The position numbers were made by a program. A DNA stretch of 11,489 nt from contig JBIKLL010000083.1 in assembly GCA_044359815.1 (NCBI GenBank), positions 1 to 11,489 on the forward strand, written 5' to 3'. Source of the DNA: Pseudobdellovibrionaceae bacterium. GTDB lineage: Bacteria > Bdellovibrionota > Bdellovibrionia > Bdellovibrionales > Bdellovibrionaceae. Every line of letters starts with the position of its first letter. Within the stretch, counting starts at the first letter, position 1. Below, piece after piece: positions 3,001 through 9,000 of the stretch.

Positions 3001-6000
3001 TCCGAGATCCTGAAGATGGTTCATTTTTCTCAGTTTAATCTGACTCACACAAATTACAGATTCAAAAATCAGTTTGATGTGATTTTTTGCAGAAATGTTT
3101 TGATTTATTTTGAGCCCCAAATGGTGTCACAGGTTATTGATATGTTGGTCGGCAATCTGAGCCCTGGTGGATATTTAATCCTGGGTCAATCAGAGGCAGG
3201 CTGTGTGAAAGGCAAACGACTACAAGTTTTAGGGAACTCTATTTTTAAAAAAATTTAAGTAGTGAATTTTTGTGTTAGGAAGCCATGAAGAAGAAAGTTT
3301 TGATCGTAGATGATTCAGCATTGATGAGAAAGTTTCTGAAGCTGGCTATTGAGCAATCCAGCCAGTTGCAGGTTATTGGAATGGCTGCTGATGCCTTTCA
3401 GGCCAGGGAAATCTTGTTGACAGAAAAACCTGATTTAATGACTCTGGATCTGGAAATGCCAAAACTTGATGGGATGAGCTTTCTGGAAAAAGTCATGGAG
3501 CATTTTCCGACCAAAACAGTCATCATCAGTGGTTTTGCCAAAGAAGGTTCCCAGTTAGCATTAAAGGCACTGTCTTTGGGTGCTATTGATGTGATTGAAA
3601 AGCCTGATTTTGAAACGTTGAAGGATCCTGATTTTGTAAACAGCAAGTTTTTGCAGAAAATTGAAGCCGCCTGCAGCGCCCGAATTTCAAAGGCTCGATC
3701 GGTACGGACCGAACAATTTCAGTTAGGCAATTCTGATTCGGTTTTGGCTGTTGCTGCTTCGACCGGGGGGACAGAAGCCATCAAAGTTTTTTTAGCTGGC
3801 TTAAAGCCGCCATTGCCACCAACTGTGATAGTCCAACACATGCCAGCAGGTTTCACAAAAATATTTGCGGAAAACTTAGCAAAAATATTCCCGTTTAAAA
3901 TTATGGAAGCTAAGGCGGGAGACAAATTATCGGAGAATACTATTTTAATAGCTCCTGGAAATTTTCACATGGAGCTAAAAAAAGTTGGTTCATTGCTGAG
4001 TGTGCAAATGAACACAGACCCGCAAATACATGGGGTTAGGCCAGCTGCAGATGTGCTTTTTAAGAGCGTCGCAAAAGCCGTCGGAGCCAAAGCCATTGGT
4101 GTTGTCCTGACTGGAATGGGTAAAGACGGAGCTGAAGGATTATTGGAAATCAAAAAATCCGGAGGATTAACTTTTGCACAAAGTGAAGCCACCTGCACAG
4201 TGTTTGGAATGCCGGCAGCTTGTATTAAATTAGATGCTGCCCAGTACATTGTGGATTTGGCAGAAATGCCTCGAAAGATTCACTCAGTCTTTGGTAAAAT
4301 CAAGGTCGCTTCGTAAATCTATTTACATGACCCACTTATCTGCGGTTAATTTTGAAATTTGAAAATGCAAACCTGTGAATTTATTAATTAGGGTCACAGC
4401 TCCTGCTTCTCTGCTCGGGCCAAGCCCCCGCCGTCCAGGCTCCGCAGAGGACCCTAATTAATAAATTCACAGGTTTGCATTTTCAAATTTCAAAATTAAC
4501 CGCAGGTCAGTGGGCCAGCTGGTACTGAGTTTTTAAAAAAAGGCTATTTCTGAATGTGAACTTAACCTTTTGCAGGACCTTGTGCTGGGCATCAGCCCCT
4601 GTTTAAAACAGCCAAAAAATCCGATCAGATTCCAATGGTAAAAACCTTAAATTCAGAAGTCATATCACAGGAACAATTGCTAAAGAGGTTTCGTATTATC
4701 ATGGTGCTTACGGGCACATTGTATCCATCTTGGGGACCCATTCTGTATGCCTTGGTTCCCAATGCCTATGATTCGATTCCAATCAGACTGGCTTTGGGTG
4801 GATCACTAGCAATCACAGTGGGGCTTTCTTACTATTTTAAATGGTTTCAGAAAAACATCGCTAACATTACCTACTTTGTTTTTGCCCTGGCCTACATTCA
4901 TGTCTATCAGTTGATATTGAAAAACGATTTTCACATTGCCTACGCTTTTGGTGGATTCATAACAATTATTATAGAAAGCATTTGTTTTATTCACCTGAGG
5001 GCCTTGGCCTATTATTGTCTGGTTGTGACGGCTACTGTGATTGTCGGAACTGTGCTGAATCCACAGATTAACTCCATTATGTATGGTGTGGCGTCTTTGA
5101 CTTTGTTGCCAGTATGCTATGTCAGCGTCAGAAATTTTGTTAAAATGATGCAGCAGTTACAGAAAAGCAAAGAAGAGCTGCTGGATCTGAGCGCTGCTGT
5201 GCAGACGTTGTTTTTGCCAGCTGACAAAAGTTTTAAATCAGATTTTTACGAAGTGAATGGGTATTACAGAGCCGTAGATAAATGCGGAGGTGACTGGTGG
5301 AAATACACAAAGACCAGTGACCAAAATCTGCGAATCACTGTAGGTGATGTGATGGGGCATGGGCCAGGATCAGCAATGATGACAGCCAGTGTAGCCAGCT
5401 ATTTTAGAGTGCTAGAATCTCAGTCGCAAATTGGATCCAGCGAAATTTTAAATAAAGTTAACGAGCAAATGACTGATTTCGGCAAATCTCAGTCCAGCTA
5501 TTTAATGACTATGTTGTCTTTGGATTTTGATTTTAAAACGGGGATTCTAAAAGCCCATTTTGCTGGTTGTCCTGCGCCTGCGATTGTGAAAGCAAACGGC
5601 GAAGTTCACTATCCTATGCAGGCGGGTACGCCATTAGGCAGTTTGGATTTTCAGTTGGGTAGTGTCGAGTATAGTCTGGCTGAGGGCGACAGGGTTTTGA
5701 TTTACACTGACGGGATTGTCGAGGCCGAAAAAGACAAAAACCAGTTTGGCCAACGACGATTAAATAAACTCATCAAAGACACACGCAGTCTGCAGCCAGA
5801 ATCTGCGTTGAGCAAAATCATAGACAGCATAGATCAGTTTGTTGGGGATTTTCCGCAGGGTGATGATTACACGATGATTGTTTTAGACGTTAAAAAAATT
5901 TCGAACCGAAATCAAATTAAGGCTTCATAGGGGATTTTTATGAGCGAACTAAAAATAGCCAAAGGCACTCAAGACAGAACTATGAATCTGAAATTTTCTG

Positions 6001-9000
6001 GCAAAATAAACGAAGACGCGACAATGGAAGATTACGACTACCGTCAGTTTGATGTTTTGCGAGTGGATTTGCATGAGGTTAATTCTATAAACTCAGTGGG
6101 TGTCAGAACCTGGCTTAAATGGATTGCAAAGATCCCCAAGGACAAACAGCTAGTGTTTTTTAATGTTCCTAAAATACTGATCGATCAATGCAATATGATT
6201 AGGGGATTTGTACCAGTATGGGCAAAAATTGAAAGCTTCGAAGTCCCTTATTACTGTGCCAGTTGTGAAACTGTGACAAAAAATATGACTCAAAATCAAT
6301 CCAAAGATTATCATTTGTTTGCACTGAGCAGCATCAAATGCAGTCACTGCCAGGCAGACACAGAGCTGGACGTAGTGGCGGAATCATTTTTTAGATTTTT
6401 AAATGCCAAGCAGTGATTCCTTTTATCAGATTTTTGATGGTTTTATGGATGGCATTTTAGTAATGAAGCCAGACCTGTCTGTTATCTATTGCAATGACTC
6501 AGCCGTCAGTATTTTAAAAGCACCATCAGCAAGATCCTTGTTAAAAAAAAAATGCAAGCAAGGCTTTACCCTTTTTTTTGGAGTTGGATTTTCAAAACTG
6601 CACTGAGCTCATTTTGTTTCAGCAAGTGGCTTTCCAGGGTGATGCAATGCTGGTGGGGATAAAGCTTGCTCCGAATCAACAGGACCGCATTATTTATTTG
6701 CGAGACATATCAGCTGAGGTGAATCTGCAAGAAAAATTCAATTCTGAAAAAAGTGAAAAACAGAAAGTTCTAGCAAAGGCTAAATTGGATGGTTTGACAG
6801 GATGTTTTAACAGGGCAGGTTTTGACACGAAACTCAAGATTGCTTTCCAGAATGCAATCGGAATCCAGGCCCCAATGTCTGTGATGATGATTGATTTAGA
6901 TTTTTTTAAAAACATAAATGATCAATTTGGACACAGTGCAGGTGATAAGTATCTGGTTGAAATGACCCGTGTGATGCAATCCTGTTTGCGTGACTGTGAC
7001 AGTCTTGGTCGTATGGGTGTGGATGAGTTTTCGGTATTGTTGGTCGGATGCGATAAGGTTCAATCGACTTATGTTGGCCTGCGTATTTTAGAAGCAGTTC
7101 AGAATCTTAAGGTGAGCTGGGATCATAAAAAATTGCAGACGACTTGCTCGGTGGGTCTTTGTCAGCTTGATGCCTCGATACAGAATACTGAAGAACTGTT
7201 AAAGCTTGCTGATGCTTGCGCCTATATTTCAAAAAATTCGGGGCGAAATGCCCTCTGTGTTTATCCTGATAAGACAATTTATCACAGGGACTAGAATCAT
7301 TTAAAAGCTTTTTAGGTAAACAGAATGTTATTGATACTTATCGGGGCCAGGGAGTAGAATTTTATCTGTGAAGGGTTTTAAAACAAACAGCATTATTAAA
7401 GACAATTCTTTGGTTATCAGCCTGTCTGGCGTTATGAATGAAGACGCAAAATTTGAACCCATAGATTTATCAAAAGCTTCTGAGCTGGTTTTGAACCTGA
7501 GCGGAATCACATTAATAAATTCAATCGGAATCAGAAATTGGCTTAAATGGTCAGCCGGCTTTCCAACGGACAGAAAAATCAAGCTGACTAATGTCCCTAA
7601 GGCAATGATTGATCAAGCCAATATGCTGTCCAATTTTTTTCCGAAAAACAGTGTGTTTGAATCATTTGAGGTTCCCTATTACTGTGCCTCTTGTGAAAAA
7701 TCTCATTCAGTTTTTTATGAGATTCAAGCCGCCAACACAGCCGAACAGGTCAAGGATTCTGGTTCCTGCCCTAAATGTGGATCAGCCACTGAGCTGGATG
7801 TCTTAAAAGAATCCTATTTAAGATTTTTAAAATAAATTAGATTTCTGTGAGCTCTAGTTGATCAGTATTAGAAGATTTTTTTTCAGAGCTCAATCTGACC
7901 CCCAGGCCGGCTAATCTGATGGCCATGGGCTGACGTTCCCAGGCTTCGGCCAACAGTTTTTCAAACAATTCTATGGTTGGCAGATCTGTCATCGCAATCT
8001 CTTTAGTGGTTGATTTAAAATCACTGAATTTCAATTTCACAACTGCGGATTTTATGCGGTTTTTATAATCCTTTTGATCAATCCTTTTTATAAAATCCTG
8101 ATACAAAGATGGGATTTTGGTTTTTAGTTCCTTCATGCTGGGTAAATCCACCTCAAATGTTTCCTCGACAGTTACAGATTTTCGCTCGGCACTGGTCACC
8201 ACTGGCCGGTGATCAACGCCCCGGCACAGATCATAAAATTCTTTGGCTCTGCTGCCAAACAGTTGATACAGGACTGGAACAGAGGCCCTTTGCAAATCAG
8301 CACAGGTAAAAAATTTGTGCTTATGCATAAATTGGGCTGTGACTTTTCCCACTCCATACAGTTTTTCAATAGGAAGGCTTGGCACAAAGCTTTCAACATC
8401 CTGAGGTCTGATGGTAAAAATCCCGTTAGGCTTTTTCCAATCACTGGCAATCTTAGCCAAAAATTTATTAGGTGCAATGCCTGCAGAGGCTGTTAATCCC
8501 AGCTCTTGCTGAATCAGTTTTTTGATTTCAGCCGCCATTAATGTGGCGCTCCCTTTACACAGATCAACATCACTGACATCCAAATAGGCTTCATCAAGCG
8601 ACAAGGGTTCAATCTGAGTGGTGAACTGTTCCAGAATCTGTCGCACGGCTGAGCTTTCCTTTTTGTACAGACTGAACTGGGGAGGAACTAATACTAATTG
8701 AGGACATTTTTTTAAGGCCATCGAACTGGGCATCGCCGCGCGGACTCCGAATTTTCTGGCTTCGTAATTAGCCGTGCACAAAACGCTGCGTGAATTTGCA
8801 GGACCACCTACCCCAACGGGCTTGCCCTTGAGCTTGGGATTATACTTTTCTTCTACCGCTGCATAAAAGCAGTCCATGTCCACATGAATGATCTTGCGCA
8901 TATGTAAATTATATGTAAATTTGATTTTAGAGCAAGGCAATAAAAATCTGGACCCGACTTAACCCGACCTAATGTCACAAAAATTCTGATAAATTCCGAT

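Follow-up and report, generated by a model that had tools for sequence, protein, structure and literature searches.

Two STAS-ribbon proteins encoded beside a PAS-GGDEF gene represent a large, unnamed family of probable phospho-switches in predatory bacteria

The closest described relatives of the system reported here are partner switches. In SpoIIAA-SpoIIAB-SpoIIE and RsbV-RsbW-RsbU of Bacillus, a STAS protein with a serine at the N-terminus of helix 2 is combined with a GHKL-fold kinase (SpoIIAB or RsbW) and a SpoIIE-family PP2C phosphatase. STAS partner switches that control diguanylate cyclases are also known already (SiaABCD, HsbA-HsbD and BgrV-BgrR; PMC8457831, PMC5085249). SiaABCD of Pseudomonas aeruginosa comprises the PP2C SiaA, the kinase SiaB, the switch SiaC and the cyclase SiaD, and SiaC binds the cyclase stalk when it is unphosphorylated; its key residues, N67-T68-S69, open helix 2 (PMC8457831). 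In HptB-HsbR-HsbA-HsbD (Pseudomonas) and BgrSTUWV-BgrR (Sinorhizobium), a STAS antagonist joins a phosphorelay to a diguanylate cyclase (PMC5085249 and PMC8457831). The system described here shares with the Bacillus switches the STAS fold, the position of the serine, a kinase family of matching GHKL fold (KIN) and an adjacent SpoIIE-family PP2C gene. It differs in that no sigma factor lies nearby, the STAS protein carries an extra ribbon module of ~60 residues, STAS protein and kinase both fall below the Pfam threshold, and KIN, with a length of 250-310 aa, is present in this genome as an unlinked fusion to a cNMP-binding domain. It is a switch of a familiar kind in an unfamiliar form.

The window, i.e., the whole stretch of 11,489 nucleotides that was analyzed, starts at a contig end and holds the genes of Table 1. 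ORFs were called with a crude script; the ORFs and coordinates that the genome-wide survey's note gave for this row (contig C101) stood up to re-reading, and Pfam confirmed the named domains. Neither an MCP gene nor a cheW gene was found within the window. The dinB-type polymerase and the sensor kinase lie, as far as shown, outside the system. A gap of 318 bp separates cheB from the PP2C gene, of which the stop is followed after 9 bp by the start of STAS-ribbon A. The latter overlaps the 67-aa ORF, the start of the PAS-GGDEF gene, by 14 bp, and 73 bp lie between the GGDEF stop and STAS-ribbon B. The phosphatase matches PF07228 over profile positions 2-191 of 192 (E 4.6e-36), with the catalytic domain at residues 229-419 and a hydrophobic N-terminal part of ~170 residues (hydropathy peaks at residues 101-165). 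No full-length orthologue occurs in 40 relatives, where the catalytic part alone finds matches of at most 33% identity.

Table 1. Features of the window, with coordinates and the evidence behind each assignment.
Feature	Position	Strand	Basis
cheY	141-653	+	Pfam Response_reg; context
cheA	656-2425	+	Pfam Hpt/H-kinase_dim/HATPase_c/CheW; context
cheR	2422-3258	+	Pfam CheR; context
cheB	3285-4316	+	Pfam CheB_methylest; context
Membrane-anchored SpoIIE/PP2C phosphatase, 431 aa	4635-5930	+	PF07228, hydropathy
STAS-ribbon protein A, 158 aa	5940-6416	+	ORF, alignments, model, structure matches
PAS-GGDEF gene, 5' fragment (N-terminal PAS half), read as 67-aa ORF	6403-6606	+	Pfam, alignment to L040
+1 frameshift zone, both frames open	6545-6603	+	Translations, sequence
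PAS-GGDEF gene, 3' part (C-terminal PAS half, stalk helix, GGDEF domain)	6578-7294	+	PF00990, alignment to L047
STAS-ribbon protein B, 155 aa, GTG start	7368-7835	+	ORF, alignments
dinB-type polymerase	7837-8940	-	Pfam; context
PAS-HisKA-HATPase sensor kinase	9012-10325	+	Pfam; context

Proteins A and B had been described as ~157-aa proteins without a Pfam or NCBIfam family. Indeed, Pfam returns only sub-threshold STAS_2 (E 0.3 for A and 0.05 for B) and assorted zinc-ribbon matches, and NCBIfam no meaningful match for either. The two are 41% identical across 154 residues (E 2e-42). A search of the whole genome recovers exactly the four paralogues counted before: two on C101 (E 1.3e-107 and 9.9e-34), one on C9 (1e-27) and one on C61 (2.4e-20). 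As had also been noted, two of them directly follow a SpoIIE/PP2C gene, namely A and the C61 copy, which is preceded by a HAMP-SpoIIE gene; the C9 copy has no phosphatase gene among its neighbours. In A, residues 1-99 form the STAS core and the C-terminal ribbon module lies beyond. The candidate phospho-acceptor S52 (codon 6093-6095) sits inside I-N-S-V-G, and the ribbon cysteines are Cys106, Cys109, Cys134 and Cys137; B has I-N-S-I-G and four cysteines, and the C61 copy has none.

The proposed STAS fold with a canonical phospho-acceptor position is borne out by the model, by structure matches and by conservation. The AlphaFold model of the STAS-ribbon protein (pLDDT 94.3, pTM 0.88) has as its best solved Foldseek matches SpoIIAA (1th8_B, E 1.5e-4), 4hyl and RsbV (6m36), with a TM-score by target of at most 0.68. 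With model residues 1-99, VIA-align gives Z 9.4-8.2 for YchM-STAS, 4hyl, SpoIIAA, TM1442 and RsbV. The family profile finds TM1442 first among PDB sequences (E 0.0021), placing S52 opposite the serine of its D-S-A-G motif, and helix 52-63 of the model begins at S52. In an alignment of 135 members, S52 and G54 are the sole invariant positions, while G21, E25, N51, W58, Q83, S99, P103, D144, Y150 and F153 are conserved in at least 90%. Conservation is slightly weaker here than in an earlier list from 38 sequences. The motif [I/L]-N-S-x-G is present in all 84 genome-sampled members, and S52 is probably the phosphorylated residue. Of the C-terminal CxxC ribbon that had been claimed, the module is there, but about half of the family (44 of 84 genome-sampled members) lacks the cysteines, and their presence is unrelated to kinase adjacency. 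Zinc binding, which the ribbon may provide where cysteines occur, is therefore not family-defining.

The STAS fold is shared by MlaB, a subunit of the Mla lipid transporter, and a homologue with 81% identity bears the name 'MlaB component' in one source; a single-sequence PDB search also gives weak matches to MlaB-type chains (E 0.4), and position 51 is Asn, where Asp is the usual residue in SpoIIAA-type proteins. Nonetheless, it is highly improbable that the serine is merely structural and that these proteins act as accessories of a transporter in the manner of MlaB, or as STAS scaffolds that bind ligands or NTPs. The acceptor serine is conserved, the best structure matches are phosphorylatable antagonists, kinase and phosphatase genes flank the domain or are fused to it, and a fusion to a Hanks-type Ser/Thr kinase exists. 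There is no transporter context either: no sigma-factor, Mla or ABC-transporter gene was found among the 92 otherwise unlabelled neighbours within two genes of related loci, nor among the labelled ones.

The family is large. Profile-search counts given previously were reproduced exactly (4,148 proteins at E<=1e-3 and 2,969 at E<=1e-10), and 202 representatives remain at E<=1e-30; of 301 genomes taken from the phylum as a sample, 198 have a member. It has no name, and its STAS proteins, A and B included, are probable phospho-switches of predatory bacteria. Eleven long forms among the best 150 matches were likewise recovered. In ten of these, 417-471 aa long, the N-terminal domain shows the N, G1 and G2 boxes of GHKL proteins, and in one case it exceeds the HATPase_c_2 cut-off (28.8 vs 27.4 bits). 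This domain corresponds to KIN, a GHKL protein family without a Pfam family and with an extra N-terminal region, of which 63 sequences share the invariant residues E126, N130, D179, G182 and G210. Related loci were compared in a set of 80, which share ancestry and were the top matches to a single query; the counts therefore overstate independent support. Of the 77 STAS-ribbon genes there that are preceded by another gene, 63 have KIN immediately 5' on the same strand; KIN is fused to STAS-ribbon once, as it is among the long forms. Within three genes of STAS-ribbon, KIN occurs in 66/79 loci and a PP2C in 50/79. The survey's proposal that STAS-ribbon proteins are partner-switch components wired to SpoIIE/PP2C phosphatases is supported, and it gains strength from a dedicated kinase family that relatives encode next to the STAS-ribbon gene or as a fusion with it.

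That no RsbW-type kinase is recognizable in this genome, as had been stated, proved incorrect. Its sole KIN match (HMM E 1.9e-28; the next, 0.005, concerns a 55-aa ORF) lies on contig C16, where a cNMP-binding protein (cNMP_binding E 9.7e-16) carries it as the C-terminal domain. The domain model (pLDDT 86.1) has the SpoIIAB/RsbW fold (SpoIIAB 1l0o_A, E 8e-7, TM 0.79; RsbW 6m37, TM 0.83-0.84), and full-length orthologues with 41-49% identity occur in at least ten related genomes. The C16 gene is unlinked to all four STAS-ribbon copies, none of which has an adjacent KIN; we infer that it encodes their cognate enzyme. In a comparison of 41 genomes, 28 combine STAS-ribbon with KIN, four have STAS-ribbon alone, none has KIN alone and nine have neither; canonical STAS proteins are retained in eight of these nine. 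Alternatively, the C16 kinase could act on this genome's two canonical STAS proteins (C7 and C20), although the phyletic pattern is against this. The assembly is 91% complete, and a further kinase could therefore be missing.

Judged by fold, conserved motifs, adjacent or fused genes and phyletic co-occurrence, the partner-switch triad is real, and it includes two unnamed families. In its likely cycle, KIN, a very divergent serine kinase of SpoIIAB/RsbW fold, would bind the unphosphorylated STAS-ribbon protein and phosphorylate Ser52, with which helix 2 begins; a PP2C linked to a sensor would strip the phosphate, and the unphosphorylated protein would then bind its partner. In relatives, the triad genes form one unit, contiguous or fused, followed by PAS-Hpt-HATPase kinase and receiver proteins and no sigma factor. 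Here the triad is dispersed, with four STAS-ribbon proteins, a membrane PP2C (C101), a HAMP-PP2C (C61) and KIN on C16, which would work in trans and put the phosphorylation state under cNMP control. A and B are probably the antagonists of this PP2C, KIN and STAS-ribbon triad, widespread in Bdellovibrionota, and the PAS-GGDEF gene that they flank is the likeliest target on C101, by analogy with SiaC-SiaD, HsbA-HsbD and BgrV-BgrR.

Neighbourhoods in relatives may point elsewhere for the family at large. An Hpt-type kinase gene lies immediately 3' in 31/78 loci and a receiver in 13/78, and HisKA-HATPase(-REC) kinases and HDOD proteins recur among the unlabelled neighbours. The C61 copy, which lies between HAMP-PP2C and REC-DUF4388-TPR and close to a PAS-Hpt-HATPase gene, groups on the tree with the equally arranged loci L079 and L098. 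Five related loci encode HAMP-PP2C-KIN fusions that resemble HsbR, in which phosphatase and kinase domains are combined. It is a real, if tentative, possibility that STAS-ribbon and KIN gate downstream PAS-Hpt-HATPase kinases, REC and REC-TPR proteins, much like the HptB-HsbR-HsbA route, with a two-component phosphorelay rather than a cyclase as target and the C101 copies as a lineage-specific offshoot. The basis is adjacency, and such neighbours are missing around A, B and the C9 copy, although the window does contain a PAS sensor kinase. HsbA and BgrV are canonical STAS proteins, and an FlgM-type anti-sigma partner was not seen here. On the tree, A and B join the C9 copy in a separate clade with long branches (SH-aLRT 96), apart from all KIN-linked members, so that carrying function over to them from the KIN-linked clades is an extrapolation.

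Returning to the cyclase as the likeliest target of A and B, the gene order reported for C101 stands, but the 67-aa ORF and the supposedly sensor-less GGDEF gene are one PAS-GGDEF gene with a +1 frameshift. The 67-aa ORF matches PAS_8 (E 1.3e-3; PAS_9 and PAS_4 sub-threshold). Residues 8-57 of the L040 PAS-GGDEF protein align to 6424-6576 in its frame (E 3.9e-6), and residues 96-134 of the L047 protein, the PAS end, to 6668-6784 in the GGDEF frame. The frameshift is placed where both frames are open, a zone with the homopolymers A10 (6543-6552) and T8 (6572-6579). The GGDEF domain (PF00990, E 2.6e-39) has an R-x-x-D I-site (R-D-C-D), and its signature reads G-V-D-E-F (7016-7030) and not GG[DE]EF, which is kept in four of the other five GGDEF genes of this genome (six in all) and in all five STAS-ribbon-linked ones of relatives. 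The logic of phosphatase, kinase and phospho-switch is that of SiaABCD (PMC8457831), and N51-S52 recalls its motif. Similarity is weak, however, both between the STAS-ribbon model and SiaC (Z 6.7) and between the KIN model and SiaB (E 0.014); SiaC is a DUF1987 protein from another family without a ribbon, the cyclase here is frameshifted with GVDEF, and the kinase lies outside the operon. Cyclase control by A and B is plausible, given the gene overlap and the precedents, but just 5/79 related loci have a GGDEF gene within three genes of STAS-ribbon. These are PAS-GGDEF genes, and the five loci occupy at least three distinct positions on the tree.

A broader claim appears rather doubtful, namely that A and B act as output switch for CheY-CheA-CheR-CheB, toggle the neighbouring cyclase with the zinc ribbon as a new contact surface and lack a cognate RsbW-type kinase. 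The gene order, the 14-bp overlap and the cyclase-controlling precedents (PMC8457831 and PMC5085249) fit, as do the PAS-GGDEF genes of the 5/79 related loci. The link to the che genes is weak, a single adjacency in this genome across the 318-bp gap; the PP2C has no receiver domain, neither the che-PP2C arrangement nor an orthologous PP2C occurs in any of 40 relatives, and the existence of KIN, the frameshifted GVDEF cyclase and the variable cysteines count against it as well.

With both the frameshift and GVDEF, the C101 output may be weak, non-catalytic or decaying. The frameshift sequence is identical in contigs of two other samples (X4, 6215-7200; X5, 6184-6669; no differences or gaps), and A and B have long branches and no close orthologue in 40 relatives, where the best match reaches 35% identity. 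The module as a whole is nonetheless unlikely to be a decaying remnant, made up of a cyclase pseudogene and of two lineage-specific duplicates, A and B, whose role is not conserved. The frames of A and B are intact with all family-conserved residues, slippage at the homopolymer runs may occur, and homologues of 81% and 51% identity in other samples indicate that the A lineage is under constraint. Upstream of STAS-ribbon B, GGGAG lies 13 nt 5' of the GTG start, and a promoter-like site is suggested at 7331-7360 by consensus match.

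The genome (2.95 Mb in 125 contigs, 91% complete) encodes four STAS-ribbon proteins, as the genome-wide survey's note had reported: two in the window (C101), here called A and B, which share 41% identity, and one each on contigs C9 and C61. On C61 the copy has a HAMP-SpoIIE gene on one side and a REC-DUF4388-TPR gene on the other, and the C9 copy has no signalling neighbour. Neither A nor B has a Pfam STAS or STAS_2 match above the curated cut-off (STAS_2 scores of 11.7 and 14.2 bits, respectively, against a cut-off of 29.2); besides these, only stray zinc-ribbon matches occur, and NCBIfam returns nothing useful for either protein. 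A word-indexed search with A retrieved three proteins only and a metagenome scan one weak, partial relative; its homologues P0001 and P0002 are 81% and 51% identical to it. A profile of six sequences reproduces the family size reported earlier, with 4,148 representatives (counted at 50% clustering) at E ≤ 1e-3, of which 2,969 also pass E ≤ 1e-10. Of 301 genomes drawn from across the phylum, 198 contain the family according to a profile of 135 members; among the 258 high-quality ones the count is 179. The best 80 genomic loci, obtained with the six-row alignment, are all titled as Bdellovibrionota-type MAGs or as MAGs under older proteobacterial names.

Features of the window, and large FecR-domain proteins of related loci and of the own genome
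Feature	Position	Strand	Remark
cheY, cheA, cheR, cheB	141-4316	+	318-bp gap 3' of the block
SpoIIE/PP2C protein, 431 aa	4635-5930	+	N-terminal third hydrophobic; full SpoIIE/PP2C domain
STAS-ribbon protein A, 158 aa	5940-6416	+	begins nine bases past the PP2C gene
67-aa ORF	6403-6606	+	14-base overlap with the end of A
GGDEF ORF	6578-7294	+	next frame relative to the 67-aa ORF
STAS-ribbon protein B, 155 aa	7368-7835	+	73 bases 3' of the GGDEF ORF
dinB-type polymerase	3' of B	-	followed by a PAS sensor kinase
Microsatellite (TGAT)x25	10323-10423		begins at the stop codon of the PAS sensor kinase
Imperfect 17- and 26-bp repeats	10586-10676
Microsatellite (ATTGTTTG)x14	10901-11013
Microsatellite (GAAACA)x9.7	11322-11379
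FecR-domain protein	L029:799-3114		related locus
FecR-domain protein	L055:234-3239		related locus
FecR-domain protein	L079:1870-4158		related locus
FecR-domain protein	L019:11470-13536		own genome

The STAS alpha/beta fold proposed for these proteins is borne out by the AlphaFold model of A (pLDDT 94.3, pTM 0.88). Its top Foldseek matches are SpoIIAA, a Haliangium antagonist and RsbV (E from 1.5e-4), and VIA-align, which is independent of Foldseek, places STAS domains over residues 1-99 (Z 8.2-9.4) and leaves residues 100-158 unmatched. Among PDB sequences, the family profile matches the Thermotoga antagonist TM1442 best (E 0.0021), S52 of A being aligned to the serine of its D-S-A-G, presumably the phospho-site of that protein. 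The equivalent position is the phospho-acceptor in SpoIIAA-type proteins. S52 and G54 are the sole invariant columns in an alignment of 135 sequences, the conserved serine pointed out previously recurs as [I/L]-N-S-x-G in all 84 genome-sampled members, and helix 52-63 of the model begins at S52. Source databases label members as 'hypothetical protein', with 'MlaB component' once and 'anti-sigma regulatory factor' once, the latter for a fusion. An identity as MlaB is unlikely: the transporter genes MlaF/E/D are not encoded alongside, and neither Mla components nor any ABC transporter occur among the labelled neighbours or 92 unlabelled ones. In the literature covered, which leaves out most subscription journals, neither this family nor a partner switch of Bdellovibrio was found to be described.

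A candidate kinase of the system is visible in the long forms of the family. In 10 of the 11 long forms among the best 150 matches, the STAS-ribbon module is C-terminal to a domain of about 270 residues, which upon alignment displays E-x-x-x-N, D-x-x-G and G-G-A-G-x-G boxes. One fused form (P0133) passes the HATPase_c_2 cut-off (28.8 against 27.4) and is named a Ser/Thr kinase by one source; the corresponding part of another fusion matches HATPase_c at 5e-5. This domain also occurs as a stand-alone GHKL kinase-like protein of 240-320 amino acids (KIN), for which Pfam at E ≤ 0.01 gave nothing in any of six proteins. The Bergerat fold with its N, G1 and G2 boxes is preserved in an alignment of 63 sequences, E126, N130, D179, G182 and G210 being invariant and A211, G212 and G214 conserved in at least 90%. 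In the 80 related loci, a script called 79 STAS-ribbon genes, 77 of which have an upstream gene; in 63 of these 77 the directly upstream gene on the same strand is a stand-alone KIN. Counting up to three genes away, KIN is present in 66 of the 79 and SpoIIE/PP2C in 50 of the 79; KIN is fused to the STAS-ribbon module in one locus (L027), and HAMP-PP2C-KIN fusions exist in five loci. In the window itself the PP2C gene alone adjoins, and the KIN homologue is encoded on contig C16.

The earlier statement that no RsbW-type kinase is recognisable in this genome is not supported. An HMM of the long-form N-terminal domains matches a single ORF, C16:4952-6487 (minus strand; E 1.2e-23), and with an HMM of 63 KINs the same protein is once more the sole match (E 1.9e-28). 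Its HATPase_c_2 score of 13.9 bits is below the Pfam cut-off. The model of residues 250-511 (pLDDT 86.1) matches SpoIIAB (E 8e-7, TM 0.79-0.80 in Foldseek), RsbW (TM 0.83-0.84) and UsfX, and SiaB more weakly. The N-terminus of the 511-residue protein is a cyclic-nucleotide-binding domain (E 9.7e-16), and the model contains a receiver-like region, with the Leptospira regulator LvrC as top Foldseek match. Full-length orthologues, 41-49% identical, are present in at least 10 genomes of the same family, including related genera. The C16 protein is a candidate cNMP-gated serine kinase.

STAS-ribbon and KIN also tend to be present or absent together. When 41 genomes were searched with each query, 28 contained both, nine contained neither, four contained STAS-ribbon alone and none contained KIN alone; this is a pattern rather than a statistic, since the genomes are kin. 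Of the four genomes with STAS-ribbon alone, two are 72% and 88% complete and two come from a genus in which the adjacent KIN is too divergent for the query (cf. locus L026). Canonical STAS proteins persist in eight of the nine genomes that lack both families, which argues that KIN tracks STAS-ribbon and not STAS proteins generally. In the present genome, canonical STAS proteins (PF01740, about 49 bits) are located at C7:7570-7854 and C20:20318-20608 with no recognisable kinase or phosphatase adjoining; the neighbours of the latter are prs, Ham1 and RNase PH.

A typical operon (locus L043) encodes a HAMP-PP2C, KIN, STAS-ribbon, a PAS-Hpt-HATPase kinase, REC and REC-TPR. Of 78 loci, 31 have an Hpt-type kinase gene directly 3' of STAS-ribbon and 13 have a receiver gene there. 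According to Pfam, the 92 unlabelled neighbours within two genes comprise further HisKA-HATPase(-REC) kinases, HDOD proteins and a large FecR-domain protein, the rest being housekeeping genes. No sigma-factor gene occurs within two genes in the related loci, and the six Sigma70_r2 genes of the genome are all on contigs other than that of the window. In the tree, A, B and the C9 copy form a long-branched clade of their own with two metagenomic homologues (SH-aLRT 96), and the C61 copy falls inside the Hpt-kinase clade beside loci with the same PP2C / STAS-ribbon / REC-TPR order. The module's HAMP-PP2C gene is repeatedly paired with a divergent gene for this large FecR-domain protein (690-1,090 aa; N-terminal FecR, Ig-like repeats), which may act as its sensory partner.

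Taken together, fold, motif conservation, adjacency, gene fusions and co-occurrence are best accounted for by a partner-switch triad that includes two unnamed families, STAS-ribbon and KIN. KIN would phosphorylate S52 of the STAS-ribbon protein, sensor PP2Cs would remove the phosphate, and the choice of partner would depend on the phosphorylation state. In this genome, the cNMP-binding kinase of C16 may act in trans on the four STAS-ribbon copies.

The genome-wide survey's note went further and read A and B as the output switch of a chemosensory-like pathway, acting on the neighbouring cyclase. The link to the che genes is one of adjacency and nothing beyond: the PP2C protein of the window has no receiver domain, and neither an orthologue of it nor the che-PP2C arrangement was found in 40 relatives. 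That A and B target the cyclase is made plausible by the 14-bp overlap, the position of the cyclase gene between both genes, the recurrence in relatives (5 of 79 loci have a PAS-GGDEF gene no more than three genes away, at no fewer than three separate places on the tree) and the fact that the genome has only six GGDEF genes. Published precedents add to this, as SiaC-SiaD, HsbA-HsbD and BgrV-BgrR are described as cases of partner-switch cyclase control (PMC8457831; PMC5085249). The state of the cyclase gene, on the other hand, weakens the proposal.

What had been described as a sensor-less GGDEF gene preceded by a 67-aa ORF is one PAS-GGDEF gene with a +1 frameshift. The 67-aa ORF has N-terminal PAS matches (PAS_8, E 1.3e-3). 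In tblastn, residues 8-57 of the PAS-GGDEF protein of locus L040 align to 6424-6576 in the 67-aa frame (E 3.9e-6) and residues 302-475 to the GGDEF frame, in which the PAS end of the L047 protein is also placed, at 6668-6784. Both frames are open only at 6545-6603, where the shift lies, with an A10 run (6543-6552) and a T8 run (6572-6579) at the break. Contigs of two other samples, X4 (6215-7200) and X5 (6184-6669), bridge both runs without any difference at depths of about 4, so the shift is not a one-off assembly error; as assembled contigs were compared, minority length variants may still exist. The contigs of X3 break at 6561 and leave the homopolymers unbridged. Homopolymers of this length can cause transcriptional or translational slippage, and the gene might hence be low-expressed rather than dead. 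At the active site the sequence is G-V-D-E-F, and an R-x-x-D site precedes it by five residues; four of the five other GGDEF genes of the genome and all five STAS-ribbon-linked PAS-GGDEFs of relatives have GG[DE]EF instead. An intact frame together with GG[DE]EF, as expected of an active diguanylate cyclase, is thus not what 6403-7294 displays, and judged from its sequence the cyclase is probably impaired. Since it was central to the earlier reading, this calls for caution where the window is concerned.

The C-terminal module is universal in the family; its cysteines are not. The CxxC...CxxC ribbon, in the earlier reading the partner-binding surface, is carried by A, B and the C9 copy but not by the C61 copy. 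Among the 84 genome-sampled members, 26 have two CxxC motifs, 14 combine the first pair with a second pair of different spacing, and 44 are without any, the last group including nearly all members of the Hpt-kinase clade; in database searches, 97 of 141 short proteins have at least two CxxC. Going by these motif counts, zinc binding would be clade-specific at best. That cysteine loss tracks the loss of an adjacent KIN was considered and rejected: loci with KIN upstream comprise 35 without cysteines, 13 with the variant pair and 15 with Cys4. The module can also be duplicated or fused, as in P0023 (tandem) and P0160 (977 aa), in which a Hanks-type Pkinase (9-279) is joined to a STAS-ribbon module (367-517) with serine and cysteines intact and to a second, degenerate copy of the module. 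P0160 was the single fusion from a search for longer forms, and the low fusion count among its 8,000 crowded candidates is uninformative. Atlas structure neighbours give a lead to large Myxococcota clusters in which further Pkinase or PilZ domains would be fused to the same fold.

Compared with SpoIIAA/RsbV, the family shares the STAS fold and the serine at the start of helix 2 (x-S-x-G). The putative cognate GHKL serine kinase and PP2C are encoded alongside in the relatives as well, whereas the window has the PP2C only. SpoIIAA/RsbV control a sigma factor via an anti-sigma partner; the STAS-ribbon loci are without a sigma-factor neighbour. In SiaABCD the switch is a DUF1987 protein whose gene accompanies those of kinase, phosphatase and stalked GGDEF cyclase, while A and B have no DUF1987 match and their putative kinase is unlinked; the logic is similar and the families differ. 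The window GGDEF scores 121.5 bits against the NCBIfam SiaD cut-off of 290, and the PP2C 29.1 against the SiaA cut-off of 700. The principle itself is not new, since partner switching is found in textbooks and its control of diguanylate cyclases has already been published. What is new is the definition of the STAS-ribbon switch and its SpoIIAB-like kinase, two large families that are blank in current libraries, and the operon that, throughout a phylum of predatory bacteria, links both with sensor phosphatases and with Hpt phosphorelays. The mechanism is of a known kind; what sets this variant apart is its families and ribbon, a phosphorelay context free of sigma factors and a kinase fused to a cNMP-binding domain.

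The signalling of predatory Bdellovibrionota is poorly charted, and hundreds of 'hypothetical proteins' per database become testable components with an S52-type phospho-site predicted for the family. The cNMP-gated kinase proposed to act in trans in the window's own family can be tested in cultured Bdellovibrio. We consider it unlikely that all elements combine into one Pfam-invisible, phylum-wide signalling layer of predatory bacteria (Bdellovibrionota, with leads into Myxococcota). In such a layer, the phosphorylation state of several STAS-ribbon switches at once would be governed by one SpoIIAB-like kinase gated by cyclic nucleotides, and each copy would be reset locally by a dedicated sensor phosphatase; c-di-GMP synthesis and Hpt phosphorelays would in this way be tied to cNMP signalling without a sigma factor. 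The ribbon, Cys4 or metal-free by clade, would serve as a clade-specific zinc/redox input or dimerisation device, and the Hanks-type kinase fusions (P0160) and PilZ fusions (the Atlas lead) would make the module a general phospho-acceptor or adaptor domain.

A scan of the window found no Rfam families or tRNAs, and promoter and terminator predictions were close to the shuffled expectation (14 versus 10.6 and 3 versus 4.1, respectively). An AT-rich non-coding tail of about 1.2 kb 3' of the PAS sensor kinase (10323-11379) holds three perfect microsatellites; perfect repeats this long are unusual in bacteria.
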